A stretch of DNA of 60,871 bases, from the IMG/VR virus record IMGVR_UViG_3300020138_000001, positions 1 through 60,871 of that record; one strand, written 5' to 3'. Positions within the stretch are counted from its first letter, which is position 1. Each line of letters starts with the position of its first letter. This DNA comes from a virus. Made by a program: the position numbers and the translations under genes. The notes below the pieces were generated by a model that made no database searches, had not been told where the DNA came from, and was given only the letters and a program-made list of their open reading frames with translations. This document shows positions 1 through 58,759 of the stretch, in pieces.

Positions 1-127
1 GGGAGAGTGTCCGCGCCTGGGCGACGCTTCCAGACGACACGCTTGTAGTCCGTTTCTGGCGTCCCCATCCCCGGTGGGGGTGGAAAGCAACGTCACGCGC
101 TGCGTACGCACTCAGCGCGATGAAAGA
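1..127. repeat. Terminal direct repeat copy A, identical to 60745..60871 (circular closure overlap)
   Basis: The first 127 nt (gggagagtgtccgcgcc...gcgatgaaaga) recur exactly at the end of the window. Confidence 0.95.
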
Positions 128-1010
128 GCTGGATCTCATCAATCGCCGGATCATAGCGGAGACCATCTCGCGCATGGCTGCAAACGGTGTGATCCTGTAT
201 GACAGAGGGAAACTGAGCTTCCCGGACCTACCTACGCCGGTCAGTGCTGAGTCGGTCGACCCGTTCGCACAGATTCTCGTTGATGTCGGATCAAAGGGCA
301 TTGCGGACCCCACGAGCGCACAAGCAGCGATCAAGATTCCGATCGGAGCTGATCTCGGAGACTCCGACATTCGGGTGTCCGACCTCATCGAAGTGATCGA
401 CTTCTCTAACCCGTTCTCTGAGCGAATGCTCGATCAACGTGCAGCGGCCGTGACCCGCCTGGCAACGGCGCTCGACATTCCAGCCGAACAGCTAACCGGA
501 CTCGGTAACATGAATCACTGGGGCGCGGCGCAAATCGAAGAGTCGGGCATCAAAGTGCACATCACGCCCGACATGGAGATGATCTGTCACGCCTTCACAG
601 AGGGTTACCTATACCCAACGCTAGAAGCAGAAGGCAGAGCGATCGTCGGACCGCAGGGTGGCCGTCCGGTCATTTGGTACGACCCTTCTGAGATTGTCAT
701 GCGTCCTGACCGGTCGAATGAGGCGATCGAAGCTTACGACCGGGGCGAGTTGACCGGAGCTGCGTTGTTGCGTGAACTGGGCTTCTCGGCTTCCGACCAG
801 CCTGACGAAGATGAGCTAGAGCGCATCATTGATCTGAAGCGTCGACTCAGCATCGTGAACGAGACGATCACCACGGAAGAGGAGTCGGGCGCTGTCGACA
901 TCGATAATCCCGATCTGACCGAAACGCAAGAGACCGAGATCAGCGATCAGGCTCCGGAAGATGTGTCCGCTCAAGCGCAGCAACTTCTGAGGAGTTCTAG
1001 CTATGGCTGA
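1..1010 (+). CDS. Portal protein, C-terminal part (5' partial in this linearisation; codon phase starts at nt 3)
   Basis: Same frame as 60300..60871. The TGA at 1008 overlaps the next gene's start by 8 nt. The call rests on position and size. Confidence 0.8.
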   Translation, partial: ESVRAWATLPDDTLVVRFWRPHPRWGWKATSRAAYALSAMKELDLINRRIIAETISRMAANGVILYDRGKLSFPDLPTPVSAESVDPFAQILVDVGSKGIADPTSAQAAIKIPIGADLGDSDIRVSDLIEVIDFSNPFSERMLDQRAAAVTRLATALDIPAEQLTGLGNMNHWGAAQIEESGIKVHITPDMEMICHAFTEGYLYPTLEAEGRAIVGPQGGRPVIWYDPSEIVMRPDRSNEAIEAYDRGELTGAALLRELGFSASDQPDEDELERIIDLKRRLSIVNETITTEEESGAVDIDNPDLTETQETEISDQAPEDVSAQAQQLLRSSSYG

Positions 1011-3399: not shown

Positions 3400-3558
3400 G
3401 TGGGATGCAACTGCGGTAGCAAGAAAAAAGGGACGATCAATCACTTTTCAACCGAACAGCAAGCAGCTATCGCACGTCAACGTGGCGGAGTCGTGACCAC
3501 GGCTCGATCCCGACAGACGCCCGTTGCGCCTGCGAAGGCCGAAACAAATCAAGATTAG
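3400..3558 (+). CDS. Small hypothetical protein (52 aa, basic)
   Basis: GTG start after gggagaggtgaag; it fills the gap between the MuF and capsid genes. The ORF is below the track's length cutoff. Confidence 0.35.
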   Translation: MGCNCGSKKKGTINHFSTEQQAAIARQRGGVVTTARSRQTPVAPAKAETNQD

Positions 3559-3643
3559 TCCATCGATCCGGAGGTTTTCTCGAAAGAAAGCCTTCGAATC
3601 GATGTATGATCCGAGTATCTACTCGAATACACAGAGGGATGAC

Positions 3644-5452
3644 ATGCCGAAAAACAGTGGAGGCGGGTTCGACCTGCCAGACGACCCCAAGGAATTGAAC
3701 GCTCGACTGGCGGAGATGAACGACGCTGAGCTGTCGGAGCTGTTGACGAAGTTGGGCGACGCCTTCGATGACAAGTACGGCGACGGCACCGGGCTGACGG
3801 ATGAGGCGCTGACCGAGCTGGAATCTCTCGGGAATCAGATCAAGACTGCTCAGGAGGTTGCGGAAACGCGCGAAACGGAGCGTCAGGAACGTGATCGTCG
3901 TGCTGCCGAACTGCGAAATTCCGTACGTCCATCGGCCGATGCAGACGCGCAGGCGGCCGACGAGAATGCCGGAGACGATGAGCAGTCGGAGGTGCCCGAA
4001 AACGATCGGGAGCCCGTAGCAGCGGCGTCAGACGCTCCGCTTGTGGCAGCGATGCACGCCATGTCGGAGACGGCACAGACCATGCAGGCATTTGCTGCGG
4101 ACTACCTGAAACCAGGCACCGACCTGAACAAGCGCCTCCGTCTGGGAGAGATCGCCAAATACGCTCCAGACGCGGGCGTGCACGAAGAGCGCTCGGAAGC
4201 CGTACTCATCGCTTCCGCTGACGTCCCCGGGTTCACGCAGGGGGGTCGAGTTGAGAACATTCATGCGCTGGCAAAGGCCATGCACAACCGCGCTCGGATG
4301 CTACCGGTCTCGAAGACTGGAGACCCGAATATCTACCCTGTTGCGAGCCTGCAACGAGAGTTCAACTTCACGCTGAACGAGAACTCAACTCCGGAGGAAA
4401 TGAACGCCGTTCTCACCGCTGCGACGGACGTAGAAATTCTCACGGCCGCAGGAGGCTGGTGCGCCCCTTCGGAGATCTCATACGATTTTTTCAATATCGT
4501 ATGTGAAGACGGCATGATTGACCTTCCTTCGGTTGGACTCAACCGGGGCGGCGTGCAGTACCCGACTTCCCCGAGCTTCGGCGATCTCGTGTCGATTCCG
4601 GATATCGTCTGGGAGTGGACGGAGCAGGACGACATCGATGCGGCCGACTCGGACTCGGTATTCAAGCCGTGTGTTCGACTTGAGTGCCCCGAGTTTGTAG
4701 ATCGTCGCGCCGACTGCCACGGATTCTGCGTTACCGCCGGTAACCTAGTGGACTACGCTTATCCGGAGCTAGTAGCCAATTGGCTACGACTGGTGTTCGC
4801 TATTCGTGCCAAAGCCACGAATGCCGGAATCATCGATGTACTGATCAATGGCGGAGGGTCAGGAGACCCGATCACGCCATCGATCGCAGTCGACCACACC
4901 GGACTGCTTGGAGCCACCACATCGGCACTGCTTCAGTCCATCGAATTGAGCATTGTCGACTACCGAGAAAAGTTCTCGATGTGTTCCGACGCCATCATGG
5001 AGGTTGTACTTCCACGCTGGGCAAACGCGGTTGTACGTGCGGACCTGGCAAACCGCGAAGGCATCGACGTATTCGGCGTTACCAACGGCATGATTGCCGA
5101 TTGGTTCAACCTGCGCGGCGCTCGCGTGCAGTTCGTCGGAGACTGGCAGGTTCGCGAGACAGGAGCAGCCGGAACCGCGACGCCAGGTGGCGCGACGCCG
5201 CTGACCACGTGGCCCAACACGATGGATTACCTCGTGTTCGCGCCGGGGACGTTTGTTCGCGGCAACGGCATGTCACTCGACCTCGGTGTCACTCGCGACT
5301 CGGTTCTCAACTCCACGAACGACCACACGGCCGCATGGGCAGAAGACTGCTTTGCGATCCTCAAGCCGGGACATGAGTCCCGCGTGGTATCCGTGGCTCT
5401 GTGCCCATCGGGAGAGATCGGACAGCGTTCGCTCACCTGCGCTGAGGCGTAG
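3644..5452 (+). CDS. Major capsid protein with an acidic, coiled-coil, scaffold-like N-terminal domain
   Basis: ATG (MPKNSGGG) after agaggga; the upstream TTG extension is rejected. 602 aa. The N-terminal ~170 aa are Glu/Asp/Ala-rich, followed by an HK97-type body (AAGGWCAPSE). Confidence 0.7.
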   Translation: MPKNSGGGFDLPDDPKELNARLAEMNDAELSELLTKLGDAFDDKYGDGTGLTDEALTELESLGNQIKTAQEVAETRETERQERDRRAAELRNSVRPSADADAQAADENAGDDEQSEVPENDREPVAAASDAPLVAAMHAMSETAQTMQAFAADYLKPGTDLNKRLRLGEIAKYAPDAGVHEERSEAVLIASADVPGFTQGGRVENIHALAKAMHNRARMLPVSKTGDPNIYPVASLQREFNFTLNENSTPEEMNAVLTAATDVEILTAAGGWCAPSEISYDFFNIVCEDGMIDLPSVGLNRGGVQYPTSPSFGDLVSIPDIVWEWTEQDDIDAADSDSVFKPCVRLECPEFVDRRADCHGFCVTAGNLVDYAYPELVANWLRLVFAIRAKATNAGIIDVLINGGGSGDPITPSIAVDHTGLLGATTSALLQSIELSIVDYREKFSMCSDAIMEVVLPRWANAVVRADLANREGIDVFGVTNGMIADWFNLRGARVQFVGDWQVRETGAAGTATPGGATPLTTWPNTMDYLVFAPGTFVRGNGMSLDLGVTRDSVLNSTNDHTAAWAEDCFAILKPGHESRVVSVALCPSGEIGQRSLTCAEA

Positions 5453-5494
5453 GACGTTGGCGGCCATGAGAGCAATCGGGGGAGGTGAACGGTA

Positions 5495-6400
5495 GTGGCA
5501 CGAGGGAGATTGTTGATCGACAGCGGAACGCTGCCGTTCACCGCTCCGCAGTACGGTCTGCTGTCCGTAGCGACGCCGCTGGAACTTCCCGCAGGTGCGC
5601 ACTGGCGGATGGGGATCACGTGGGAGCCGCTATGTCCTGAAGCATCGGGCACTTACGACCCGTGCATAGCGCTCGTTGAAAACGCGGGAGTAATCGAGAC
5701 GGCCCCGCCGCCGACACCAAAGAGCGCAACGACCGAATGGGCTGTTCGCAGCGCTACAGCGTTCACCGCCTACTCCCGTATCGACTGCTCACCGGTGGGC
5801 CAGTGGGATCAGTTGTCGAGCATGAATCAGCAGGCGTTGCTTCGGTCCGAATCTCGTTTCGTGGAAACAGCGTTTTGGTCCGGAGTAGTGGACGGCGAAG
5901 GGGTCGTTTTTCCGCATCTTGCTGCCGGTACGGTGGTTGAAGACGGTAATACGCTGCTTCAGCCTGAAGCGACGATCATCACGGAGGCACCGCAGAACAT
6001 CGCTGTCGGCGTCGGGATGCTCGAAGACGCCATGCGAGACTGCTACCCAGGAGTAGCAACGATCCACTTGCCGATTCGATTGGCAGCACTAGCCGCAGCC
6101 GAAGGAATCGTGACCACGCGCTCCGGTCTCATGTATACCGAATCGATCGGATCAAAAGTCGTCGTAGGAGACTACCCAGGGACCGCGCCCGACGGCTCTG
6201 AGCCGGACCCGGGGGTGACGTGGGTGTACGCCACCGGAGAAGTCTTCTTCATCCGGGATCGAGAGCCGCGCATCATCGATGGTGTAGAGGCATTCGATCG
6301 CAACGTGAACACGGTTGAGGTACTGGCCGAACGCACTTACGTCATCGGTTGGGATTGCTGCCTGTTCGCGATCCCGATTTCGAACGGAGAACAACTCTAA
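5495..6400 (+). CDS. Virion structural protein, function unresolved
   Basis: 301 aa with a GTG start after gggggagg. It lies between the capsid gene and the terminator at 7096 and is coupled to the next gene by a TAATG overlap. Confidence 0.55.
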   Translation: MARGRLLIDSGTLPFTAPQYGLLSVATPLELPAGAHWRMGITWEPLCPEASGTYDPCIALVENAGVIETAPPPTPKSATTEWAVRSATAFTAYSRIDCSPVGQWDQLSSMNQQALLRSESRFVETAFWSGVVDGEGVVFPHLAAGTVVEDGNTLLQPEATIITEAPQNIAVGVGMLEDAMRDCYPGVATIHLPIRLAALAAAEGIVTTRSGLMYTESIGSKVVVGDYPGTAPDGSEPDPGVTWVYATGEVFFIRDREPRIIDGVEAFDRNVNTVEVLAERTYVIGWDCCLFAIPISNGEQL

Positions 6401-7062
6401 TGCCAGTATGTGCAGCGCCTATCAAGGCGGAGGTGGCTCGGTTCACGCTACTCGATCCGTGTGGCGCACCGATCTACGGAGACGGGTCGGCACAGGTAAC
6501 CACCGATTCGTTCACAGAAATTCAGAACTCGCCAAACTACGAAGCTGGAAACCGTTTCTTGCAGCGTAAGGCGAATGGTGATCCATGCGTCAACGAACAA
6601 GATCCCGGCTTTCTGAACTGGATTGAACAGACTGTCAATCTCTGCACGCTCGACGTTGACTTGATTGCGATGGTCACCGGAGAAGACCCGATCTCGTCTG
6701 CGTCTGATTTCATCGGCGTGCAGTTTGGTGAAGGACTGCTCAACGCTCGTTTTTCGAAGGAAGTCTGGCAGCCTGTGTCGGGACAGGGTGCCTGCGACCC
6801 GGAGGGTAATCAGCAGTGGATTTACTGGGCGTTCCCACACGAATACGACGCTCAGATTCAACAGTTCACGTTCGCAAACGACGTCTTCACGTTCTCCTAC
6901 ATGTCGAAGACTCGGCAGGCGAATCCCGCCTGGGACATCGGCAATCCTTGGCTTGCTGATACCCCTGTTTCGGCATGGGGCCCTGGCAAACACTACGCCT
7001 TCGCGATTACGACAACGCCGCCGCCCGAAGCAGGGTGTGGTGCCGTAGAGATCGGAAGCTAG
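6400..7062 (+). CDS. Abundant virion protein, candidate major tail (tube) protein; C-terminus ITTTPPPEAG
   Basis: ATG overlaps the upstream TAA (taatg). 220 aa. A strong terminator follows. No other major-tail-sized gene lies before the chaperones. Confidence 0.45.
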   Translation: MPVCAAPIKAEVARFTLLDPCGAPIYGDGSAQVTTDSFTEIQNSPNYEAGNRFLQRKANGDPCVNEQDPGFLNWIEQTVNLCTLDVDLIAMVTGEDPISSASDFIGVQFGEGLLNARFSKEVWQPVSGQGACDPEGNQQWIYWAFPHEYDAQIQQFTFANDVFTFSYMSKTRQANPAWDIGNPWLADTPVSAWGPGKHYAFAITTTPPPEAGCGAVEIGS

Positions 7063-7095
7063 TGCGGTATCATACATACAACTGACCCATTGGAA

Positions 7096-7127
7096 GCGCC
7101 CGTGACAACCGGTCACGGGCGTTTTCG
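7096..7127 (+). terminator. Rho-independent terminator after the capsid-region operon
   Basis: gcgcccgtgac-aaccg-gtcacgggc stem followed by gttttcgt. Confidence 0.75.
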
Positions 7128-7146: not shown

Positions 7147-7812
7147 GTGAGCAGACCCGCTATTCCGAAGATCATGCATAAAATTTGGATCGGCAACCCG
7201 ATGCCGTCCCACCTTCAGGCGAACTGTCTCCGATGGCAGGAAATGCATCCGGACTGGCAGTTCAAGCTGTGGACAGAGCCGCAGATTGACGGCATGCATC
7301 TCCAGAACCGCGCGCTTTACGATCAAGCTGAGAAACTGGTCCCGAGAGACGCCGTCGAACAGTTCCGGGCCGACATCGTTCGGTACGAAGTGTTGCTGGA
7401 GCACGGTGGCATGTATTCCGACGTGGACACGTACCCTCTCCGAAGAATCGATCCGGCCCTTGAGGGTCACGATGAGTTCGCGGCGTACGAAGATCAACGA
7501 TGGATCGGAAACACCTACATCGGCGTCGTTCCGAACCACCCCATCATGCGCACACTCGTTTCGGACTTGCCCGCAAACGTGACAAGGCAGCGCGGAAGTC
7601 GTCCGAACAAGTTGAGCGGACCGCAGTACCTCACTCCGGTGTGGCGAAGGTTCGGCGGATACGTAGCCCCGCAACGTTCGTGGTATCCGTACTCGTACAC
7701 GGACGTCAAGCGCGGCACCGTGCCAGAAGTTTTCGACACGGCAGTTTACGCAGTGCACTCATGGGATCACACGAAGAGAGTCATGGCGGCGCGAGCGGAC
7801 AGGGAGCACTAG
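7147..7812 (+). CDS. Glycosyltransferase with a DXD sugar-binding region (Gly_transf_sug/GT32-like)
   Basis: IPKIMHKIWIG...RADIVRYEVLLEHGGMYSDVDTYPL is the typical N-terminal and DXD signature. Confidence 0.75.
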   Translation: MSRPAIPKIMHKIWIGNPMPSHLQANCLRWQEMHPDWQFKLWTEPQIDGMHLQNRALYDQAEKLVPRDAVEQFRADIVRYEVLLEHGGMYSDVDTYPLRRIDPALEGHDEFAAYEDQRWIGNTYIGVVPNHPIMRTLVSDLPANVTRQRGSRPNKLSGPQYLTPVWRRFGGYVAPQRSWYPYSYTDVKRGTVPEVFDTAVYAVHSWDHTKRVMAARADREH

Positions 7813-9092
7813 TGCTGAGCTTCGATGATCTTTCTAGTCTGGACGGATTGATCTCCAGAGGCGTTGGAGAGCTGTTGCACAACTACGCGGCATGCGTTCC
7901 AGCAGATCAAGCTATCGTAGAGCTGGGATCGTACCGTGGCAAATCCACGTGCTACCTTGCTACCGGTTCGAGTATCGGGCACCGGGCACCAGTGTTCGCC
8001 GTGGATGCCTGGTCTGAGGCTGTGTCGACGTGGCGCAACCGCGTCATGGACCGCCTTCCGTCTCCGGAGTTTGAAGATTTTCAGGCTCAAGTGGCACTCG
8101 CCGGGATGACGGAGATGGTCACTCCGATACAGTCGGATACGGTGAAGGCGTCTGCACAATGGAGCACGGTTGGCGGAAACCGCACAATCGGCCTACTCTA
8201 CATCGACGGCGATCATCATCATGAAGCCGTCATGGCAGATTTCCGAGCGTGGCGGCCATTTCTCGCAGACGATGCACTGATCGTGTTTGACGACTACGAC
8301 ACTCCGACGAATCCCGGAGTCCTGACCGCCGTGCGGCTACTCGAACAGCGGGATGAGATCAGGAATCTAGAAAAACATGAGGGTCGACTAGGTCTATGCA
8401 ACCCGGGGAAGCGACCGCTACGTCTTTCAGCGTCGATCATGGCGCACCCGACTCGGCGAGAATCTGCGGAGGAACTTCAATCGCAGCTTGATCGACCGGC
8501 CCCCATCATCTACGACCAGGAAGCAATTCCATCTGCGGACCCCCGACAGCGCTGGAAGGTTGGTGCTGAGTGCTGGGCGACGCACGAGGATCGTGCTGAT
8601 TGGCACGTAGTGATTCAGGACGACGCGGTGCCTTGCGCGGACATGCTTGCTGGGCTTGAGATGGGATTGAACGTTCTCGGTTCCGAAGGCTTCGTGTCCG
8701 CGTTCGTAGGTCGTGGGAAGCCGTCGCATCATCACGTACGCAAGGCCATTCGGCACGCCCTTGCGAAGGATCATGCCTGGATGTCGCTTCGCTCGCTTGC
8801 GTGGGGTGTAGCCATCGCTGCGCCTACGAGCACCATTCCGGATATGCTGGAATGGTGTTCTCATCCCGAGCGCGAAGATATGAACTACGATAAACGAATT
8901 GGAATCTACTACCGAGATGTTCTCCGCTGGAGAACTTGGCACCCGATTCCAAGTCTCGTAGAGCATCGCGCACTGCCCTCACTCGTTGGGCATGACAGCT
9001 CGGAGAGAGATTCTTTCATGCACTACGAAGGTTCAGCGCTCGACATCGATTGGAACCGAACGCCGCCTTCGGGACTGGCGGTAGGCTTGTGA
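7812..9092 (+). CDS. Class I SAM-dependent methyltransferase (Methyltransf_24-like) fused to a GT-A-like glycosyltransferase domain
   Basis: GTG overlaps the upstream TAG (tagtg). N-terminal LGSYRGKST...LLYIDGDHHHEAV...IVFDDY. The C-terminal domain (about 8424..9092) is a clear paralogue of 9685..10491. Confidence 0.7.
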   Translation: MLSFDDLSSLDGLISRGVGELLHNYAACVPADQAIVELGSYRGKSTCYLATGSSIGHRAPVFAVDAWSEAVSTWRNRVMDRLPSPEFEDFQAQVALAGMTEMVTPIQSDTVKASAQWSTVGGNRTIGLLYIDGDHHHEAVMADFRAWRPFLADDALIVFDDYDTPTNPGVLTAVRLLEQRDEIRNLEKHEGRLGLCNPGKRPLRLSASIMAHPTRRESAEELQSQLDRPAPIIYDQEAIPSADPRQRWKVGAECWATHEDRADWHVVIQDDAVPCADMLAGLEMGLNVLGSEGFVSAFVGRGKPSHHHVRKAIRHALAKDHAWMSLRSLAWGVAIAAPTSTIPDMLEWCSHPEREDMNYDKRIGIYYRDVLRWRTWHPIPSLVEHRALPSLVGHDSSERDSFMHYEGSALDIDWNRTPPSGLAVGL

Positions 9093-9703
9093 CAGAAGAC
9101 CCGTTCACCCCGAAACACTACTGGGAACAACGATATCGTCTCGGACGTACATCCGGCGCGGGATCTGAAGGCGCTGAAGGCAGGTACAAGGCGGCGTACC
9201 TTTCTGAATTCATTGCCGAGAACGACGTGCAGACTGTTGTCGATTGGGGCTGCGGCGATGGGCAAGTTCTCGATCAGGTAGATCTGCACGGCGCGCAGTA
9301 CATCGGGGTCGACATCTCGCCTACGATCATCGCGAAGATGCGCGACAAGTTTGCGCAGCTCGGATCTCGCTACCTGTTCCACACGGTCGACGCCTTTGAG
9401 ACCGGAACGCAGACACAGTTCGATCTTGCGCTCAGCTTCGACGTGCTTTTTCATTTCCCGGACGATACCGACTATCGCCAGTACCTGACGAATTTGTTCA
9501 GCAGCGCTAGCAAGTTCGTCATGATCTACTCCACGAACTACGATCTCGGTCGAACAGCGAAACACGTCTATCGACGCACATTCACGACCGACGTAGCTCT
9601 GTGGTTTCCCGAATGGTCATTGACCACGATAGAGATGCCACTACGAGAAGGCGCAGCGTCGTTCTTCGTTTACGAGAAGGTATTATGGCTACACTCTCAG
9701 TGA
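9089..9703 (+). CDS. Class I SAM-dependent methyltransferase
   Basis: GTGA start/stop overlap. HYWEQRY...VVDWGCGDGQVL...DLALSFDVLFH are Rossmann methyltransferase motifs I and post-I. Confidence 0.7.
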   Translation: MTEDPFTPKHYWEQRYRLGRTSGAGSEGAEGRYKAAYLSEFIAENDVQTVVDWGCGDGQVLDQVDLHGAQYIGVDISPTIIAKMRDKFAQLGSRYLFHTVDAFETGTQTQFDLALSFDVLFHFPDDTDYRQYLTNLFSSASKFVMIYSTNYDLGRTAKHVYRRTFTTDVALWFPEWSLTTIEMPLREGAASFFVYEKVLWLHSQ

Positions 9704-10491
9704 AGGTCATGGCGCACCCCAAGCGCGAGCGCTTCATTCCCGACCTTGTGCGCCGCCTTGGAATAGCGAACGATGATGTCGTTTGGGATCAGAAAAATGA
9801 CCGTTGGGACACCGGCCGTCGCGCGTGGGAAGCAGTTGATCAGTCGGCGGATTGGGGCATGGTGATTCAGGATGACGCGATCCCATGTGCCGACCTGATT
9901 GAGGGACTGCAACGAGCGCTCGACCACGTGCCCCCGAACGTACTGGTGTCGCCGTACGTCGGCACGAGACGCCCGTCTCGGTCGCGCGTTGATCGGTCGG
10001 TACAGGACGCAGCAGCCGCAGGAGCCGCGTTCATCGTTATGCCGTCATTGAACTGGGGAGTAGCGATCATCGCGCCGACCGGCATCATTGACGGAATGCT
10101 CCCGTGGTGCGATACGCAGCGGTACCCTAACTATGACCGGCGCATTGGAAGGTACGCCATTGATGTGGTGCGCATGGAAACATGGTGCACGTTTCCAAGT
10201 CTCGTGGATCATCGAACGATTCCTTCGCTTGTCGGCCACGGCGACGGCCGGACCGCGCATCACTTCATCGGAGCCGACAACTCCGCACTGTCGGTAAACT
10301 GGTCGTCAGGAACCATCCGCATGAGCACTGCTCGAACGGTAGCCAGATCGATCGGAGGTCGACACCGACCCGGAGCGTACGGCACTCGTGGCTATCAGGC
10401 AGCTCGGAGGCTCCGAGTACCGCGACAAGAACGCATTGACGATGTAGTGCCGGAGCGACCGGAGGGGGCAGGAGAGCATGACAGCGCTTGA
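9685..10491 (+). CDS. GT-A-like glycosyltransferase (paralogue of the 8424..9092 domain)
   Basis: ATG after gagaagg (an alternative GTG lies at 9700). Shares MAHP..R, DW..VIQDDA.PCADL, WGVAI.APT, YD.RIG.Y and PSLV.HR..PSLVGH with the upstream domain. Confidence 0.65.
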   Translation: MATLSVKVMAHPKRERFIPDLVRRLGIANDDVVWDQKNDRWDTGRRAWEAVDQSADWGMVIQDDAIPCADLIEGLQRALDHVPPNVLVSPYVGTRRPSRSRVDRSVQDAAAAGAAFIVMPSLNWGVAIIAPTGIIDGMLPWCDTQRYPNYDRRIGRYAIDVVRMETWCTFPSLVDHRTIPSLVGHGDGRTAHHFIGADNSALSVNWSSGTIRMSTARTVARSIGGRHRPGAYGTRGYQAARRLRVPRQERIDDVVPERPEGAGEHDSA

Positions 10492-11287
10492 TACGGGACC
10501 GTGCGAGCCGTGGCCCACGCTCTGTACCTCCTACCCTGATGACGTCGATCCTGCGCTGATCGAGCAGGCGGAGATGATCGCTACGGAAGTACTTTGGGAG
10601 GGAACGAAACGGCAGTACGGGCTGTGTTCGATGACCCTGCGACCCTGCCGAGAGGATTGCTTTCCTGCGTGGCCTTGGATTCCCGCCACCGGGTGGTTTG
10701 ACGTCGGAGGGCTCTCATGGCCCTTCCCGGCCCCGGCGCTTGTCGGTGGCAAGTGGTTCAACATCGCGTGCGGATCGTGTTCCTCTGGATGCTCATGCTC
10801 TTCGGTCTCGGAGGTGGCGCTTCCGTACCCGGTCGCAAACGTGACGGAAGTGCGGGTGGATGGCGAAGTTCTCGACCCCGCAGCCTACCGAGTGGACGAC
10901 TGGCGTCTGCTCATTCGGCTGGATGGGCTGGACTGGCCGCGCTGCAATGACCTGAATCTCGAAGACACTGAAGAGGGTACCTGGTCGGTTACTGCGCAGT
11001 ACGGGAAGGCTGTTCCCCATCTAGGACAAATGGCAGCGGGACAGCTCGCAACCGAGATCGTGAAGCGGTGCGTGGGCGCGAGCGATTGTCTTTTGCTCGA
11101 AAGCACTGTGCAGCAGATCACTCGACAGGGCGTAACGAAAGTCTTCTTCGACGCCGCTGCCTTCTCCGCCGGTCGAACGGGTCTCTATTGGGCTGACCTT
11201 TTCCTGAACCGCAAGAATCCGTCGAACACGGGAATCGCCACAATCTTCGACATCGACGGCGAACAGGGGCGGCGGGTGAATACCTGA
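10478..11287 (+). CDS. Head-tail connector/adaptor-like structural protein (Cys-rich)
   Basis: 269 aa, called by position between the head and tail modules. The N-terminus CEPWPTLC...DPALIEQAEMIATEVLW resembles actinophage adaptors. Confidence 0.5.
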   Translation: MTALDTGPCEPWPTLCTSYPDDVDPALIEQAEMIATEVLWEGTKRQYGLCSMTLRPCREDCFPAWPWIPATGWFDVGGLSWPFPAPALVGGKWFNIACGSCSSGCSCSSVSEVALPYPVANVTEVRVDGEVLDPAAYRVDDWRLLIRLDGLDWPRCNDLNLEDTEEGTWSVTAQYGKAVPHLGQMAAGQLATEIVKRCVGASDCLLLESTVQQITRQGVTKVFFDAAAFSAGRTGLYWADLFLNRKNPSNTGIATIFDIDGEQGRRVNT

Positions 11288-11853
11288 TGGGTCAGAACAA
11301 CGCTAACCCTTTCGCAGCTTTCGATATCGCAGAGCACATAAAAGATTGTGTTCTTGAGTGGCTGGATATGACCACCAAGGGCGTGCCAGACCGCGCATGC
11401 GTCATCGCCGGAGAATCTGCCGACGACGAGTGCGAGTGCGGACAGCTCACCGTGGCGATGGACAGTAATTATGAGGCAAACGGAACTTCTGTTCCGCGCG
11501 CAGGGAGTGAACGTCCAGGACGGCGCGAGTGCGGACCTCCGTTGTTCGTCGTGAACTTCCTGATCACCATGATGCGATGCGCACCGACTGGCACAAACAC
11601 GAAACCACCGACATGTGATGACCTGGAGACGGCAGCGCGTATCGCTGCTGAAGACGCTTGGGCTGTCCGAGCCGGAGTCATTTGCTGCTTGAGCGATGCG
11701 GTGAAGAACCGACTACCAAACGGTACGAAGCTTTATCGAGACTTCGTCGTAGGCACGCAGACGTGGGTGGGTCCGAGAGGAGCTTGCATGGGCTCGACCC
11801 TGCCTGTGTCCGTAACGATCGATAATGGGTGCTATCCCTGCGAGATGAGCTGA
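11287..11853 (+). CDS. Structural protein (head-tail joining region), unresolved
   Basis: TGATG coupling to the upstream gene; 188 aa. Confidence 0.45.
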   Translation: MGQNNANPFAAFDIAEHIKDCVLEWLDMTTKGVPDRACVIAGESADDECECGQLTVAMDSNYEANGTSVPRAGSERPGRRECGPPLFVVNFLITMMRCAPTGTNTKPPTCDDLETAARIAAEDAWAVRAGVICCLSDAVKNRLPNGTKLYRDFVVGTQTWVGPRGACMGSTLPVSVTIDNGCYPCEMS

Positions 11854-12220: not shown

Positions 12221-12556
12221 ATGCATTTTACTACGACACCACGCGTCACCACGTTCACGGTCGATGAAGAGGAGTATCAGACGAAGGCCGCGCTTCCGGC
12301 TGAAGTACTGTTCAAGCTGCAAAACGCCTTCCGAGGGATTGCAGCGAAGGACGGCGACCAAGAACGGGCCTTTGAAAAGATCAAATCACTGTACTCGCGC
12401 ATCCTGACCGCTGAATCCTTCGCGCTGTTCGAACCTCGCATCACCGGCGAGTGCGACGACGACGTGACGCCTATCGACGGCATGCTGCTAGTGGAGATCA
12501 CTAAGGCACTTATCTCGGAGATGGGAAAAGGGAGTTCGCCGCAGCCAGCTTCTTGA
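12221..12556 (+). CDS. Tail assembly chaperone (G-like)
   Basis: 111 aa, immediately upstream of the tape measure gene. It contains the slip site GGGAAAA near its 3' end. Confidence 0.75.
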   Translation: MHFTTTPRVTTFTVDEEEYQTKAALPAEVLFKLQNAFRGIAAKDGDQERAFEKIKSLYSRILTAESFALFEPRITGECDDDVTPIDGMLLVEITKALISEMGKGSSPQPAS

Positions 12557-20152: not shown

Positions 20153-20638
20153 GTGCCGAACACGTCGAACTACAACTTCGAGTACGAATCCCCTACGTCG
20201 ATCCCTGGCACGTCCATCACGGGGGGTCCGCAGGGTGGTTCTCCGATCCTCGCAGTTCAGGTAGATACTGCCCTTGCTTCCGTCGAAACGAAGGTGGACG
20301 TCAACGCGACGAACATCGGAGCTAACACTTCCGACATCACGGCGCTTCAAGAGGATTTGACCGACCTCGCGAGCTGGACTCGGAGCGGCACAGTACTGCT
20401 GAACTTCAGCAACTTGGACTCGTACACTGCTCCGGTTGTATTCGGATTCACCTTCCCCGGAACACCAGTGGTTACGACGAATATCAGCATCGGCGCTGCT
20501 TCGGCTGCTCGATGGGACTCTCGTGGCATCTCAGTGAACCCTACTGGCTTCACGATGTTCGTGTACTCCAACGCGAACGGAGATTCGTCTAGCTGGAGTG
20601 ATGTGCCCGTAAACTGGATTGCGCACTACGATGCTTAG
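20153..20638 (+). CDS. Minor tail protein / receptor-binding candidate (paralogue B)
   Basis: The N-terminus MPNTSNYNFEYESPTSIPGTSITG...SPILAVQVD matches the previous gene, while the C-terminus diverges. GTG start after aaggag. Confidence 0.6.
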   Translation: MPNTSNYNFEYESPTSIPGTSITGGPQGGSPILAVQVDTALASVETKVDVNATNIGANTSDITALQEDLTDLASWTRSGTVLLNFSNLDSYTAPVVFGFTFPGTPVVTTNISIGAASAARWDSRGISVNPTGFTMFVYSNANGDSSSWSDVPVNWIAHYDA

Positions 20639-21023
20639 AAACGCCTCGGGTTCTCCAAGTGACGCCGCAGTATAGGCACGTTTGCGTGTTCGTCTCCGAC
20701 ATGGCGGCGAGCAGTGTAGCTGAGCATATCGGGCACTTCGATCGCTTCCGGGCCCGAGTGATCTTTTTCCGTTGTTTAACCGTCATGCCTCCCCATGTCC
20801 CGTAGTGCTCCGGAGTGGTGATAGCGGTGATGAGGCACTTCCGACGTACAGGACAAGTGCCGCATACCGCCTCAGCTATCGGGTCTGGAGTCAGAGCATC
20901 ATCCTCTGAGTCCCAAGGGTTGTACTCGGAAGTAGCCTTATCCCTGCACGCAGCGTTATCTCTCCAATCACGAGAAAGCTCATGGCCGAAGCCATGAGCT
21001 TTCCCCTCACCCGGTTTATGCAA
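20589..21023 (-). CDS. whiB: WhiB-family Fe-S transcription factor with a C-terminal CxxC...CxxC extension
   Basis: C-X27-C-X2-C-X5-C (ACRD...AVCGTCPVRRKC) plus the GTWGG turn. TTG start after aggag. Carries an extra CPICS...CLYCG tail. Confidence 0.8.
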   Translation of the reverse strand: MHKPGEGKAHGFGHELSRDWRDNAACRDKATSEYNPWDSEDDALTPDPIAEAVCGTCPVRRKCLITAITTPEHYGTWGGMTVKQRKKITRARKRSKCPICSATLLAAMSETNTQTCLYCGVTWRTRGVSKHRSAQSSLRAHHSS

Positions 21024-25918: not shown

Positions 25919-26266
25919 CTACACCATGATCGATACCGTGAGAGCGATTATGATTGCGCAGGTTATGAAGTTCTTGAGCGCGTCCATCGGCTGGTACTTC
26001 TTGGGAGCATCGTGCATGTGCGGCAACCGCAGTACCCACCCTCCCCACATCACCGCAGGGATGCCGATCCACCCGACCACATCCCAGGCGCTCTCCGGGG
26101 CCCACGTGAGCGCTACGCACACTGTGATCGTCCCGTACAGGAACGCTCCCGTAGCGATCTCGTTTCGCCGGTTATCGCCTTTGGGCGTCTGTCCGATCAC
26201 TACGAATCCGTACGCCCCTGACAGGAGCATTAGGAAAATCAGTATCAATTGCCAGGCCAGCGCCAT
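25919..26266 (-). CDS. Membrane protein (about 4 TM)
   Basis: 115 aa, hydrophobic throughout. ATG after acgacgaaagga. It lies just downstream of the tRNA array. Confidence 0.6.
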   Translation of the reverse strand: MALAWQLILIFLMLLSGAYGFVVIGQTPKGDNRRNEIATGAFLYGTITVCVALTWAPESAWDVVGWIGIPAVMWGGWVLRLPHMHDAPKKYQPMDALKNFITCAIIIALTVSIMV

Positions 26267-26293
26267 TACTCATCCTTTCGTCGTAGGTCATAG

Positions 26294-26364
26294 AGGCGTG
26301 AACGGGAGTCGAACCCGTCTAACTGGATTTGCAGTCCAGTACCTAACCGCTCGGTCATCACGCC
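26294..26364 (-). tRNA. tRNA-Cys (GCA)
   Basis: Hand fold: acceptor ggcgtga/tcacgcc, T-loop ttcgact, anticodon loop ct-GCA-aa. No encoded CCA. Confidence 0.8.
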
Positions 26365-26483
26365 GTAACGCCGGTAGGCAGGGTTCCCGTGGTCTCGTCA
26401 ACGCCTGGCCGGGCTCTAAGATCGCGGGGCCTTGAGGCTCCGGCGGGCGGCCCCGGGGAGTCTAGAACTCCGGAGCCTTACCG

Positions 26484-26556
26484 TGGACCGTGTCGGATTC
26501 GAACCGACAACCCTCTGATTGCAAATCAGACGCTCTACCATTGGAGCTAACAGCCC
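26484..26556 (-). tRNA. tRNA-Ala (UGC)
   Basis: Acceptor gggctgt/acggtcc with G3:U70, T-loop ttcgaat, anticodon loop tt-TGC-aa. Confidence 0.8.
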
Positions 26557-26645
26557 GTGCGCCGCATGGGAGGACATGGGAGCGACATCCCCACGGGTCG
26601 GAACTTACCCCCGACCATACACACCGTGCACAGCGTGCGTATCCG

Positions 26646-26718
26646 TGCACCGAGAAGGACTCGAACCTTCGACCAACGGTGTGTAAAACCGCCGCTCTTG
26701 CCGCTGAGCTACCGGTGC
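26646..26718 (-). tRNA. tRNA-Val (UAC)
   Basis: Acceptor gcaccgg/tcggtgc, T-loop ttcgagt, anticodon loop tt-TAC-ac. Confidence 0.8.
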
Positions 26719-26719
26719 G

Positions 26720-26792
26720 TGCAGCATCCGGGAATCGAACCCGGGTCTATGAGCCTGAAGCTCATCGCATTGCCCATTCATGCTGATGCCGC
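26720..26792 (-). tRNA. tRNA with anticodon UCA (opal-suppressor-like or UGA-reading)
   Basis: 73 nt, class I. Acceptor gcggcat/atgctgc, D stem gcat/atgc, perfect anticodon stem atgag/ctcat, loop ct-TCA-gg, T arm ccggg-ttcgatt-cccgg, A73. Confidence 0.65.
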
Positions 26793-26793
26793 G

Positions 26794-26868
26794 TAGCGAG
26801 CCCGAGATTTGAACTCGGAACCACGATCGTATCAGGATCGCGCTCTAACCAAATTGAGCTAACTCGCC
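26794..26868 (-). tRNA. tRNA-Ile (GAU)
   Basis: Anticodon stem cgatc/gatcg, loop ct-GAT-ac, T-loop ttcaaat. Confidence 0.8.
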
Positions 26869-26869
26869 G

Positions 26870-26943
26870 TACCTCGCGCAGGATTCGAACCCGCGACCGC
26901 AGAGGGTAGAAGCCTCCGGCTCTGTCCACTGAGCTAGCGAGGT
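26870..26943 (-). tRNA. tRNA-Arg (UCU)
   Basis: Perfect acceptor acctcgc/gcgaggt, loop ct-TCT-ac, T-loop ttcgaat. Confidence 0.75.
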
Positions 26944-27012
26944 GTGCGGTCCGCCCGTCGCCTACGAAACGAACCGGGCGGACCTTCATTCCTGCAACTC
27001 CCGAAGGAGCTG

Positions 27013-45656: not shown

Positions 45657-45781
45657 GTGTGCGGAGTGACGAGTTCGGTTACTTCGCCTATTAAGCGAGA
45701 GGTTGCGGGTTCGAATCCCGCTCGCTGGCTTCGGTTGGCGGTAGCTCAATGGTAGAGCGCTACATTTCCGCACTCATTTTG
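45657..45781 (+). ncRNA. YrlA-type Y RNA candidate with a permuted tRNA-like module
   Basis: Terminal stem gtgcgga (45659) / tccgcac (45767) followed by tcatttt. T arm 45705..45721, acceptor-like stem closed by a UUCG loop at 45723..45740, D arm 45744..45758. Confidence 0.5.
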
Positions 45782-45813: not shown

Positions 45814-47523
45814 ATGAGAGAAGAGGACACATTGACGAAGTTCAACAAGGCGCGACAGGGTACGACGCCTAGATCCCCCATCGCCAGCGCAACGCAAGCG
45901 CGGTTCCAGACTGCTGAAGGCGCGCAGGGATTCAAGCGCTCCGCTCAGGGAGAGTTGTTCGTACTGGGTTCGGGCCGATTCTTCGGAGAGGCATCGTTCT
46001 ACGAGTCGGCGCACGACGGGGCCGACCGATTCCGCACGCTCGTTCATGAAGTCGCGTTGAGTAATCCCGAGTGGCTTGTGCGGTTCCTGAAGTGGCTTCG
46101 AACGGAAGCCAACATCCGCACGGCCGCGATTGTTGGTGCTGTTGAGTACGTGCGCGCCATGCAGCGCCCGGAGGCTGCCGATGCCGTCGCCATCCGCGAC
46201 GGCGTGTGCCGAAGCGAGATCACGCCGCGCGCCGTGGTGCGTTCCGTCCTCCAGCGCGCCGATGAGCCCGGCGAGATGATCGCTTACTACCTCCAGCGTT
46301 ACGGCCGCTCGATTCCGCATGCGATGAAGCGAGGCATTGCCGACGCCATCACCGGAATCAGAACCGGCCGAGACCCGCTGTACTCCGAGTACAGCGTGCT
46401 GAAGTACGATACCCCTTCGCACGGAGTGCGTTTCGGGGACGTGGTGGAGCTGGTGTGCCCGGCAACAGTGCACCCATCGATTCGTGGAACGGATCAGGGA
46501 AATCTGATCAAGCACGTCATCGATCGTCGTCACGGCCGCGACGAGATTCCCGAAGTTTTCGACATGCTCACCGACAACGCGCAGATTCGCGCCCACGCGG
46601 CGCGGTACCCTGCGACCCTGCTCGATCCCGAACGTCTCAAGGCGGCCGGGCTCACGTGGGAAGACGCGCTATCGCTCGGCGGGTCGAAGCTCGACAAGCG
46701 CAAGCTGTGGGAATCGCTGATCGATGCCGATGCGCTCGGTTACATGGCACTGTTGCGCAACCTGCGGGCGTTCGATGAGGCGGGCGTCTCGGTCTACCAT
46801 GCGGCTAAGGTGGCATCGATCCTGAGAAACCCTCATCGCGTGCGGAAGGCGCGACAACTGCCGTTTCGGTTCTTCACCGCCGCCAAGGAAGCGACCGCTC
46901 CGCGATGGGCTCACGCGCTCGAACAGGCGTTGAACATTTCCACGGAGAACATTCCGGAGTTGCCGGGACGAACGCTGGTCCTGGTAGACACGTCGGGGTC
47001 GATGCAGTGGACGAACCTGTCAGCACGTTCGGGGGTCAGCTTGGTTGACACGGCGGCGCTGTTCGGCGTCGCGTTGTCGATGCACGCTGCTGATGTGGAC
47101 CTGTACGGGTTCGCAGACAGCGTGTTCAAGGCGCAGGTGTCGAAGGGCGGTTCAGTGCTTCGTCAGACGGAGAAGATGACGGCCCGCGTAGGTACGGCCG
47201 GGAACGGTACGCGGATTGCGGAGAGCTTGAAGCGGACGTTCCGAGGACATGACCGCGTCGTGATCTTCACGGACATGCAGACGATGCCGGACGACGGCAC
47301 AATGCCGTACTACGCGTACCACGTGGGGAACGTGAGCACGGCGGTACCGCCCAATGTGCCGATTTACGCATGGAACCTCGCAGGGTACGAAGCGTCGATG
47401 ATGCCCACCGGGTCGGACAACCGGCATGAGTTCGGCGGGTTCTCGGACTCGGCCTTCTCGACCATGCAGACGCTCGAAGCCGGTCGGGACGGGCGTTGGC
47501 CCTGGGAAGCATCGAAGGGGTAG
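45814..47523 (+). CDS. rsr: Ro60 orthologue (Rsr): TROVE domain plus a C-terminal vWA domain
   Basis: 569 aa. The N-terminus has TROVE-like FYESAHDG...WLVRFLKWLRTEANIR, and the C-terminus has the MIDAS motif LVLVDTSGSMQ. Confidence 0.8.
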   Translation: MREEDTLTKFNKARQGTTPRSPIASATQARFQTAEGAQGFKRSAQGELFVLGSGRFFGEASFYESAHDGADRFRTLVHEVALSNPEWLVRFLKWLRTEANIRTAAIVGAVEYVRAMQRPEAADAVAIRDGVCRSEITPRAVVRSVLQRADEPGEMIAYYLQRYGRSIPHAMKRGIADAITGIRTGRDPLYSEYSVLKYDTPSHGVRFGDVVELVCPATVHPSIRGTDQGNLIKHVIDRRHGRDEIPEVFDMLTDNAQIRAHAARYPATLLDPERLKAAGLTWEDALSLGGSKLDKRKLWESLIDADALGYMALLRNLRAFDEAGVSVYHAAKVASILRNPHRVRKARQLPFRFFTAAKEATAPRWAHALEQALNISTENIPELPGRTLVLVDTSGSMQWTNLSARSGVSLVDTAALFGVALSMHAADVDLYGFADSVFKAQVSKGGSVLRQTEKMTARVGTAGNGTRIAESLKRTFRGHDRVVIFTDMQTMPDDGTMPYYAYHVGNVSTAVPPNVPIYAWNLAGYEASMMPTGSDNRHEFGGFSDSAFSTMQTLEAGRDGRWPWEASKG

Positions 47524-54083: not shown

Positions 54084-54218
54084 ATGGGGAAATCACGGAG
54101 CATTGGGTCGCGCCCGACGCCGAAGGACCCGGAGACCGAACGCGTACGCCACACCCTACAGAACCCGTTCGGGAAGAAGTACGGTCCGAACTCGGGGAAG
54201 GACGGCGGAAAGAAGTGA
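54084..54218 (+). CDS. 44-aa basic peptide
   Basis: ATG after gaggag. The ORF is below the track's length cutoff in this frame. Confidence 0.35.
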   Translation: MGKSRSIGSRPTPKDPETERVRHTLQNPFGKKYGPNSGKDGGKK

Positions 54219-54751
54219 TCATCCCTGATCATCACATCCGCAAGGCTCAAGCTGACCTGAACATCATCGAACCGTTTGTTTCTGAGCACGTGCAGCCTGC
54301 GAGCGTTGACCTGACGCTCAGCGCGGATGTGCAGCGCTTCGGACAGCCGGATCAGGTTCAGGAGATTGGTCCTCCGCTCCGACAGCCTCAAGTGGGAACG
54401 GTCGGTCAGGGAGTCATCTTGCCGGGTCAGTTCCTCCTAGGAAGTACGCGTGAGAAGATCACGATGCCTGCGGATATGGTGGGTCAGATCAACGGGCGAT
54501 CCTCGTGGGCACGGCTCGGACTGATAGTCGAGAACGCCGGGTTCATCGACCCCGGCTTTTCCGGAACGATCACTCTGGAGCTGAAGAACGTTGGGCACCA
54601 GCCGATCAAGCTTCGCGCCGGTGACCGGATCTGTCAGCTTGTGCTGAGCGTTATGACCGGGCGAGCTGAGCGCCCCTACGGGTCTCCAGGGCTCGGCAGC
54701 TCCTACCAAGGACAGGAAGGGCCCACGCTCAGCACGATCGACAGCGCATAG
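54215..54751 (+). CDS. dcd: dCTP deaminase (dUTPase-superfamily)
   Basis: GRSSWARLGLIVENAGFIDPGFSGTITLEL is the typical dCTP deaminase core. GTGA overlap start. Confidence 0.8.
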   Translation: MIIPDHHIRKAQADLNIIEPFVSEHVQPASVDLTLSADVQRFGQPDQVQEIGPPLRQPQVGTVGQGVILPGQFLLGSTREKITMPADMVGQINGRSSWARLGLIVENAGFIDPGFSGTITLELKNVGHQPIKLRAGDRICQLVLSVMTGRAERPYGSPGLGSSYQGQEGPTLSTIDSA

Positions 54752-58525: not shown

Positions 58526-58759
58526 ATGAACGAAGAGATTGCGCACCGGTTCGCTTACCATCCGCCGAAGAACGAAGCGATGATCAAAGCACACGAGAGC
58601 GTGCGGGCCCTCCTAGGAGACGTCGCACAGGCGCTGGATGAGCTGCTACCCGACGACCGCCCCAGGGAGAAGGCACGGGTTCAGACGAACTTGGAAGACG
58701 CGATGATGAACGCGAACGCGGCAATCGCTCGAAGCCGGGAAGGGATCGACCATGTCTAG
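58526..58759 (+). CDS. Hypothetical protein (77 aa), first gene of the lysis-region operon
   Basis: HRFAYHPP...NANAAIA helical protein. No function assigned. Confidence 0.5.
   Translation: MNEEIAHRFAYHPPKNEAMIKAHESVRALLGDVAQALDELLPDDRPREKARVQTNLEDAMMNANAAIARSREGIDHV

Follow-up and report, generated by a model that had tools for sequence, protein, structure and literature searches.

Virion glycosylation is said to be mainly a trait of certain mycobacteriophages, with few signs of it in other phages. Among the described systems, Che8 gp110 and Corndog gp38 are named in a secondary source as essential glycosyltransferases (GTs) for capsid glycosylation (PMC12363180). An O-methyltransferase and three GTs of Corndog modify the capsid and the tail tube (PMC11600133), and the glycans are located at the C-termini of capsid and tail-tube subunits (PMC12619734). 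The Corndog genes (gp35-gp38) lie inside the structural operon, in the interval between portal and protease (PMC4351075). The findings on these systems trace back to Freeman et al. 2023, cited here by way of the papers named. Here we describe a four-gene cassette in the virus record IMGVR_UViG_3300020138_000001, of which the whole stretch analysed (60,871 nucleotides) is referred to as the window. From its sequence, the cassette is likely to encode a virion-protein O-glycosylation system with methylated sugars, partly homologous to those of Che8 and Corndog, and this system probably acts on C-terminal serines, that of the tail tube and that of one or more neck-region proteins. The components of the cassette, including two S-adenosylmethionine (SAM) methyltransferase domains, are:

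7147..7812, plus strand: g1, GT32-like DXD glycosyltransferase, 221 amino acids (aa) (PF04488 Gly_transf_sug, PF12919)
7812..8423, plus strand: g2 N-terminal domain, Methyltransf_24 (TylF/CalS11-like) SAM-dependent O-methyltransferase (PF13578, 1e-21)
8424..9092, plus strand: g2 C-terminal domain, gp110-family GT-A, subtype B (phrog_854, 4.5e-40)
9089..9703, plus strand: g3, class I SAM methyltransferase, NodS/UbiG-like, 204 aa (PF13649, 8e-13)
9685..10491, plus strand: g4, free-standing gp110-family GT-A, subtype A, 268 aa (phrog_854, 1e-34)

The four plus-strand open reading frames (ORFs; g1 7147-7812, g2 7812-9092, g3 9089-9703 and g4 9685-10491) form a chain in which neighbours overlap by 1 nt (g1/g2, TAGTG), 4 nt (g2/g3, GTGA) and 19 nt (g3/g4), as the first-pass annotation of this DNA had described. 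In addition, g4 overlaps the downstream adaptor gene, which starts at 10478, by 14 nt. Through these overlaps the cassette is tied into the late structural operon. Near-identical contigs, on which genes were called independently, gave the same products of 221, 426, 204 and 268 aa, and Pfam, PHROG and fold comparisons bore out the initial assignments of g1 as a DXD GT32-like GT, g2 as a methyltransferase::GT-A fusion, g3 as a further SAM methyltransferase and g4 as a free-standing GT-A protein.

The connection to the known systems runs through the two GT-A domains. In BLASTP comparisons, the g2 C-terminal domain and g4 match Che8 gp110 (4e-10 and 1e-10, respectively) and Corndog gp38 (1e-7 and 7e-7). 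The g2 domain is 27-28% identical to these two proteins and g4 is 27% identical to Che8 gp110. All invariant residues of alignment A1 are kept in the g2 domain, and a search with g4 recovered 476 homologous protein clusters. The AlphaFold2 model of g4 (mean pLDDT 84, most of the core above 90) has a GT-A fold followed by a disordered C-terminal tail of ~50 aa. Its Foldseek matches in the PDB are GT-A enzymes, namely Mimivirus R655/R699, POMGnT1, GnT-I, ppGalNAc-T2 and COLGALT1. The second-best match in BFVD is Mycobacterium phage Ardmore gp87 (TM-score 0.64). GT25 proteins, those of giant viruses among them, and protein-O-glycan GTs are more distant.

Corndog (Cluster O) resembles the window in having a cassette in the structural operon, a Methyltransf_24/TylF O-methyltransferase (gp35), a gp110-family GT (gp38) and a terminal serine on the tail tube, which in Corndog is found on the capsid as well. 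However, Corndog belongs to an unrelated phage group, its cassette lies elsewhere in the operon, and gp36 and gp37 are GT2-like or unassigned rather than GT32. It also has just one GT of the gp110 type and lacks both the fusion and a second methyltransferase of the NodS/UbiG-like type. In Che8 (Cluster F1), gp110 is homologous to both window GT-A domains and gp108 is a GT::Methyltransf_24 fusion, so a GT and this type of methyltransferase have been joined more than once. The domain order in Che8 is GT2-methyltransferase, whereas in the window it is methyltransferase-GT, with a GT of the gp110 type. Unlike the window genes, gp108-gp110 are at the right end of the genome, outside the structural operon, and Che8 has no GT32-like gene.

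The best match among cultured phages is the set of genes Pas33-Pas35 of the Actinoplanes phage phiAsp2. Pas35 is 38-40% identical to g4 and the g2 C-terminal domain, and the methyltransferase domain of Pas34 is 33% identical to the g2 N-terminal domain. The order of capsid, Pas15, tail tube, adaptor and Pas20 is as in the window, and serine ends the tail tube and Pas20 and not the capsid. In contrast to the window, the phiAsp2 cassette follows the tail-fibre genes rather than lying between tail tube and adaptor, Pas33 is GT2-like, and Pas34, of 596 aa, is a fusion in which the methyltransferase is the central part. Genes 73-80 of the Mycobacterium abscessus prophage prophiGD91-2, annotated as four GTs and two class I SAM methyltransferases, include a GT32-like protein (gp73, 31% identical to g1) and a g3-like methyltransferase (gp76, 27%). 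This prophage differs in being temperate and Cluster-F-like, in the position of its cassette upstream of the terminase gene, and in lacking a methyltransferase::GT fusion.

The GT32 label of g1 is based on Pfam rather than on CAZy/dbCAN, and rests on a Gly_transf_sug domain (PF04488, 7e-11, 43 bits against a cut-off of 23) and a DXD motif (DVD, residues 92-94), both of which are present. The match to PF12919 (TcdA_TcdB) is weaker (4e-6), the best PDB sequence match is an Och1-type alpha-1,6-mannosyltransferase (5.7e-5), and the protein has no hydrophobic segment. The g2 N-terminal domain matches CalS11, a TDP-rhamnose 3'-O-methyltransferase, in the PDB (8e-3), and its Methyltransf_24 domain is common to Che8 gp108, Corndog gp35 and phiAsp2 Pas34. 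In g3, which has a GCGDG motif, further Pfam matches are all above their cut-offs (PF13847, PF08242, PF08241 and PF13489, and PF05401 NodS at 7e-6).

A second line of evidence comes from the C-termini of the virion proteins. Capsid and tail tube, respectively, end in ...TGS and ...DGS in Che8, ...DES and ...DES in Che9d, ...VGS and ...GDS in Corndog, and ...AGS and ...PAS in the Gordonia phage Fryberger. Thus a terminal serine is found on 8 of 8 capsid and tail-tube proteins in these four phages with gp110-type GTs, versus 3 of 41 neighbouring proteins (Fisher p = 4e-7). In the window, the structural genes and the hairpin on the two sides of the cassette are as follows:

3641..5452, plus strand: major capsid protein, 603 aa (phrog_777 major head protein, 1e-125)
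5495..6400, plus strand: conserved protein in the capsid/tail-tube interval (phrog_779, 4e-40; syntenic with Twister6 gp22 and phiAsp2 Pas15)
6400..7062, plus strand: major tail (tube) protein, 220 aa, ending ...GCGAVEIGS (phrog_792, 8e-36; syntenic with Twister6 gp24 and phiAsp2 Pas16)
7092..7126/7127, plus strand: GC-rich hairpin of 15 bp followed by UUUU, from RNA folding of the spacer
10478..11287, plus strand: head-tail adaptor, at the downstream cassette edge (phrog_783, 8e-60)
11287..11853, plus strand: neck-region protein, 188 aa, ending ...GCYPCEMS (phrog_810, 1e-22)

The 603-aa capsid call was taken from near-identical contigs; the longest ORF begins at 3524. With the adaptor gene as an anchor we found 36 related loci, and overall some 40-odd relatives were compared. 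The window tail tube ends in ...VEIGS and the 11287-11853 protein in ...CEMS. The tail-tube serine is invariant in all cassette-bearing relatives (40-odd loci), where the preceding residue is G, D, E or F, and the terminal serine of the phrog_810 protein is likewise invariant in the cassette-bearing relatives of the clade. The cassette-less L042, L043, L046 and Twister6 have no terminal serine on the capsid, tail tube or phrog_810 protein. In phiAsp2, the residue also ends the adaptor, and Pas20 ends in ...PASS. Capsids of cassette-bearing relatives have ten distinct C-termini, seven of which end in serine (...TCAGS, ...CGS, ...CAS and similar).

The initial proposal of virion glycosylation of the Che8/Corndog kind, with methylated sugars, is thus supported by the gp110/gp38 homology, the shared Methyltransf_24 domain, the operon coupling and the tail-tube serine, the glycosylation itself being a prediction. 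We hypothesize that, late in infection, the four genes would glycosylate the phage's own virion proteins. One or both of the gp110-family GT-A domains (g4 and the C-terminal half of g2) would place the first sugar on the extreme C-terminal serine. The tail tube would be the clearest acceptor and the 11287-11853 neck protein a probable one, and the capsid would be a candidate in most relatives. The GT32-like g1 could then extend the chain, and the two SAM methyltransferases could methylate hydroxyl or amino groups of the sugars. The cassette would be transcribed with the structural operon and is translationally coupled to the adaptor gene, and the hairpin ahead of it probably lowers its expression relative to the capsid and tail-tube genes. 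The methyltransferase::GT fusion is a lineage-specific variant that would add a second, anciently diverged GT of the initiating type.

Several observations weigh against this interpretation. Neither g4 nor the g2 C-terminal domain matches a Pfam GT family at E < 0.1, and a sequence profile search of the PDB with the GT-A alignment returned no matches. Che8 gp110 and Corndog gp38 match PF01755 (GT25) above the cut-off; the two window domains leave the Glyco_transf_25 profile unmatched, their GT25 likeness being at the level of the fold alone (TM-score 0.40-0.48), and they are best called a GT25-related GT-A family. Neither Che8 nor Corndog has a counterpart of g1 or g3, and the glycan must therefore be a different one from that of these phages. 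The window capsid, like those of near-identical relatives, ends in ...SLTCAEA and lacks the canonical site, and therefore capsid glycosylation at that site is not predicted here. The association of the cassette with terminal serine is partly confounded by shared ancestry within the clade. The residue is also kept by the 111-aa protein at the chaperone position (12221-12556; ...PQPAS or ...PPQDS, 9 of 11 distinct relatives), so it is not specific to virion proteins. Finally, we infer donor sugars, linkages, methylation sites and acceptors from sequence.

The same enzymes could instead modify host cell-envelope glycans such as arabinogalactan, glycolipids or teichoic-like polymers, and so block superinfection or the adsorption of progeny to lysing cells, as do serotype-converting phage GTs. 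The first-pass annotation had already raised this option, the GT32, GT25-like and sugar-methyltransferase families mainly serve bacterial cell-surface glycans, and phrog_854 is classed in PHROGs as 'moron, auxiliary metabolic gene and host takeover'. However, coupling places the cassette genes in the late structural operon, and not beside an integrase or immunity region. Genes for the phage's own DNA polymerase, primase and helicase are present in the window along with about 25-29 tRNA genes, and no integrase was found among the ~30 larger ORFs examined, a combination that suggests a lytic lifestyle. Phage GTs that modify the envelope are typically membrane proteins, whereas none of the four cassette proteins has a transmembrane-like segment outside its folded core. 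Furthermore, the closest characterised homologues act on virion proteins. We consider envelope modification unlikely.

It is also improbable that the target is something else, such as a non-virion protein of phage or host or a small molecule, with the terminal serine being a lineage trait unrelated to the cassette. Such a trait would be in keeping with the serine on the chaperone-position protein and its absence from the window capsid, and shared ancestry could explain its conservation within the clade. Yet the association is seen in each of four phage groups that are unrelated to one another (Che8/Che9d, Corndog, Fryberger and phiAsp2/window), and by homology the cassette is linked directly to proteins that virion glycosylation reportedly requires.

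Modification of the phage DNA for restriction evasion, by glucosylation of hydroxymethylated bases and by methylation, is very improbable: although homologues carry the names 'glucosyltransferase' and 'DNA methyltransferase' (phrog_2675) in RefSeq and PHROGs, and a passage of PMC12619734 gives a precedent for DNA hypermodification by virus GTs (citing Pyle et al. 2024), a regex scan found DNA-methylase motif IV (D/N/S-PP-Y/F/W, as in DPPY or NPPY, or PCQ with ENV) in neither methyltransferase, the family matches of both are all of O-methyltransferase or small-molecule type (CalS11, NodS, rhamnosyl O-methyltransferase), a non-exhaustive survey of ORFs and neighbour annotations showed no hydroxymethylase or thymidylate-synthase-like gene, and the 'DNA methyltransferase' label of phiAsp2 Pas34 conflicts with the depositor's own note, 'putative O-methyltransferase'. 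The names 'glucosyltransferase' and 'DNA methyltransferase' are probably incorrect for these families. All three alternatives are weaker than glycosylation of virion proteins with respect to operon position, protein properties and homology.

Some further features of the C-termini were observed. The capsid serine has been lost in the window lineage and, independently, in L016 (...CAP) and L036 (...VCA). A connection between this loss and the extra GT domain is unsupported, given that L016 and L036 lack the serine and have an ordinary cassette. In the sister lineage L055, serine ends the capsid, the phrog_779 homologue and the tail tube. Homologues of the 17587-18489 gene product in relatives end in ...GRQS/T, and the window copy is four residues longer; this protein and the 12221-12556 protein may be further acceptors, or the resemblance may be coincidence. 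A cysteine lies 3-7 residues before the terminal serine of the capsid (TFTCAGS in relatives), tail tube (CGAVEIGS) and phrog_810 protein (GCYPCEMS), and this conserved Cys-x(n)-Ser-COOH pattern was not seen in Che8 or Corndog. The window segments concerned are at 5440-5452, 7040-7062 and 11830-11853. A literature search on 'C-terminal serine' returned nothing.

The g2 C-terminal domain and g4 had been described as clear paralogues, and this holds, with 40% identity over 213 aa (E 3e-48). It had also been stated that both GTs begin with the same nucleotide word. The word ATGGCGCACCC is indeed shared, occurring exactly twice in the window, at 8439 and 9709, where it encodes the conserved MAHP motif, but in g4 it lies at codon 9 and not at the annotated start. 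The two GT coding regions agree at 51% of all nucleotide positions and at 35% of third codon positions, and the shared word therefore reflects conserved residues rather than a recent copy. The nearest homologues of the g2 C-terminal domain are free-standing GTs of ~225 aa with 57-61% identity, encoded beside GT32 genes in the cassettes of other phages. A recent tandem duplication of the GT domain is ruled out by the 51% and 35% nucleotide identities and by the existence of closer orthologues of each paralogue elsewhere (73% and 57-61%). The description of the domain as internally duplicated was consequently dropped, since no duplication in situ took place. Judged by its nearest relatives, the free-standing GTs of other phages, the g2 GT domain is an old paralogue recruited by fusion.

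The position of the cassette is constant among all related loci that cover it, including those with adaptor identity as low as 59%. Its usual form in relatives comprises a GT32 gene, a free Methyltransf_24 gene (~208 aa), a second methyltransferase and a GT. The 426-aa methyltransferase::GT fusion was seen only in the window's near-identical lineage (L011 and L047-L050), where five independent assemblies show it to be intact. That the cassette was inserted recently, as the wording of the first-pass annotation implied, is ruled out by its GC content (57.9%, versus 59.4% for the genome) together with the constant site in all spanning loci. It is an insertion only relative to the distant relatives Twister6, L043 and L046. 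We conclude that a large clade of uncultivated ~60-kb actinobacterial phages carries the cassette as a fixed feature, although a modular one.

Variation around the common form was seen in several relatives. One subclade, comprising L008 (8094-8705), L009 and L010, has no Methyltransf_24 gene; ahead of its GT32 gene is one for a protein of 203 aa that contains a GxGRSGT P-loop. By this motif the protein resembles a sulfotransferase, which hints at sulfated rather than methylated glycans. In L055, a 235-aa Rossmann (GAGEVG) dehydrogenase-like gene (4815-5522) lies ahead of the GT32 gene and a GT of the g2 C-terminal type, and its product may be a sugar-nucleotide tailoring enzyme. An extra gene encoding 390-407 aa, whose product starts with ...QYTDKFWYP/FPNG..., is found in the interval between the GT (or tail-tube) and adaptor genes of L045 (6723-7946), L040 (1729-2892) and L042 (6759-7937).

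A broader interpretation, which we offer tentatively and with considerable doubt, is that the gp110-family GT-As form a distinct class of O-GTs for free C-terminal serine that marks a set of virion proteins, and that the cassette is a glycan-diversification island. If so, the marked set would consist of the tail tube, the 11287-11853 protein, the capsid in most relatives and possibly others. The island would swap tailoring enzymes, i.e. O-/N-methyltransferases and sulfotransferase-like and dehydrogenase-like proteins, and the fusion in the window would contribute a further initiating GT that differs in acceptor or sugar specificity. The benefit would be other than evasion of mammalian antibodies, as most of the contigs are from environmental metagenomes.

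Regardless of this broader interpretation, the same enzyme family is fixed in the structural operon of a large clade of uncultivated actinobacterial phages (the window and ~40 contigs). The terminal serine on tail tube, neck and capsid proteins could serve as a simple signature for predicting glycosylated virion proteins, and diversification of surface glycans by phages is suggested by the variation in accessory enzymes. Such systems are relevant to phage therapy, as glycans are reported to weaken the neutralising-antibody response.

The portal gene is split across the ends of the window (1-1010 and ~60300-60871; 484 aa in relatives), indicating that the window represents a complete genome of ~61 kb, assembled in circularly permuted form. 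The order of the structural genes is capsid (phrog_777), phrog_779 protein, tail tube (phrog_792), hairpin, cassette, adaptor (phrog_783), phrog_810 protein and Neck1-like protein. Twister6 (Gordonia) and phiAsp2 (Actinoplanes) have the same structural architecture, with the adaptor gene almost directly after the tail-tube gene. The gene upstream of the hairpin was originally assigned to the capsid region; this needed correction, as 6400-7062 is the major tail-tube gene by its phrog_792 match and its synteny with Twister6 gp24. No cultured phage is closely related to the window: capsid identity does not exceed 34% for any of them, and a megablast search of the cassette against 50,697 phage records gave no matches.

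The terminator-like hairpin reported upstream of the cassette was confirmed as a strong fold after the tail-tube gene. Its GC core pairs 7097-7106 with 7112-7121, and the 84-nt spacer folds at -37.5 kcal/mol (z = -5.4), with none of 200 shuffled sequences being as stable. A simple terminator scanner did not list the 7092-7126 hairpin, which was recovered by folding. A GC-rich hairpin lies 3' of the tail-tube gene in all relatives, and the sequence of its stem differs by subclade. It looks like an intrinsic terminator or attenuator that separates abundant structural genes from the enzyme genes.

The window encodes a WhiB regulator, which points to an actinobacterial host (Actinomycetota). A scan of GTDB genomes for the host returned only a 2.5-kb contig (L056, JAFRJC010000148.1) from goat jejunum, which is binned in an Eggerthellaceae metagenome-assembled genome, a binning too weak for naming a host. 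The capsid gene on this contig is 97% identical to that of the window, suggesting that the window lineage is present in ruminant gut samples.

Elsewhere in this siphophage-like genome, a dense array of tRNA genes lies on the minus strand (26294-29931), with 25 genes predicted by Rfam and 28 by ARAGORN. The array includes a tRNA with a UCA anticodon, called SeC by ARAGORN, and a 'tmRNA*' prediction by the same program at 26022-26576 overlaps tRNA genes and is probably spurious. A tRNA-like element on the plus strand (45657-45730) was identified as tRNA-Asn(att) by ARAGORN only, and an Rfam scan at gathering thresholds found nothing there. Just downstream is a gene for a TROVE/Ro60-like RNA-binding protein (45814-47523, plus strand; phrog_850, and PF05731 on the relative L058), and the element might be a Y-RNA-like tRNA mimic. 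Mapping from L058 also placed an Acb2/Tad1-hairpin-like small protein, a possible anti-CBASS/Thoeris sponge, beside a PG_binding_1 endolysin. Together with the WhiB regulator and a dCTP deaminase/dUTPase that are also present in the window, the gene for this small protein has jointly given coordinates of ~58526-58759 (plus strand), 20589-21023 (minus strand) and 54215-54751 (plus strand).

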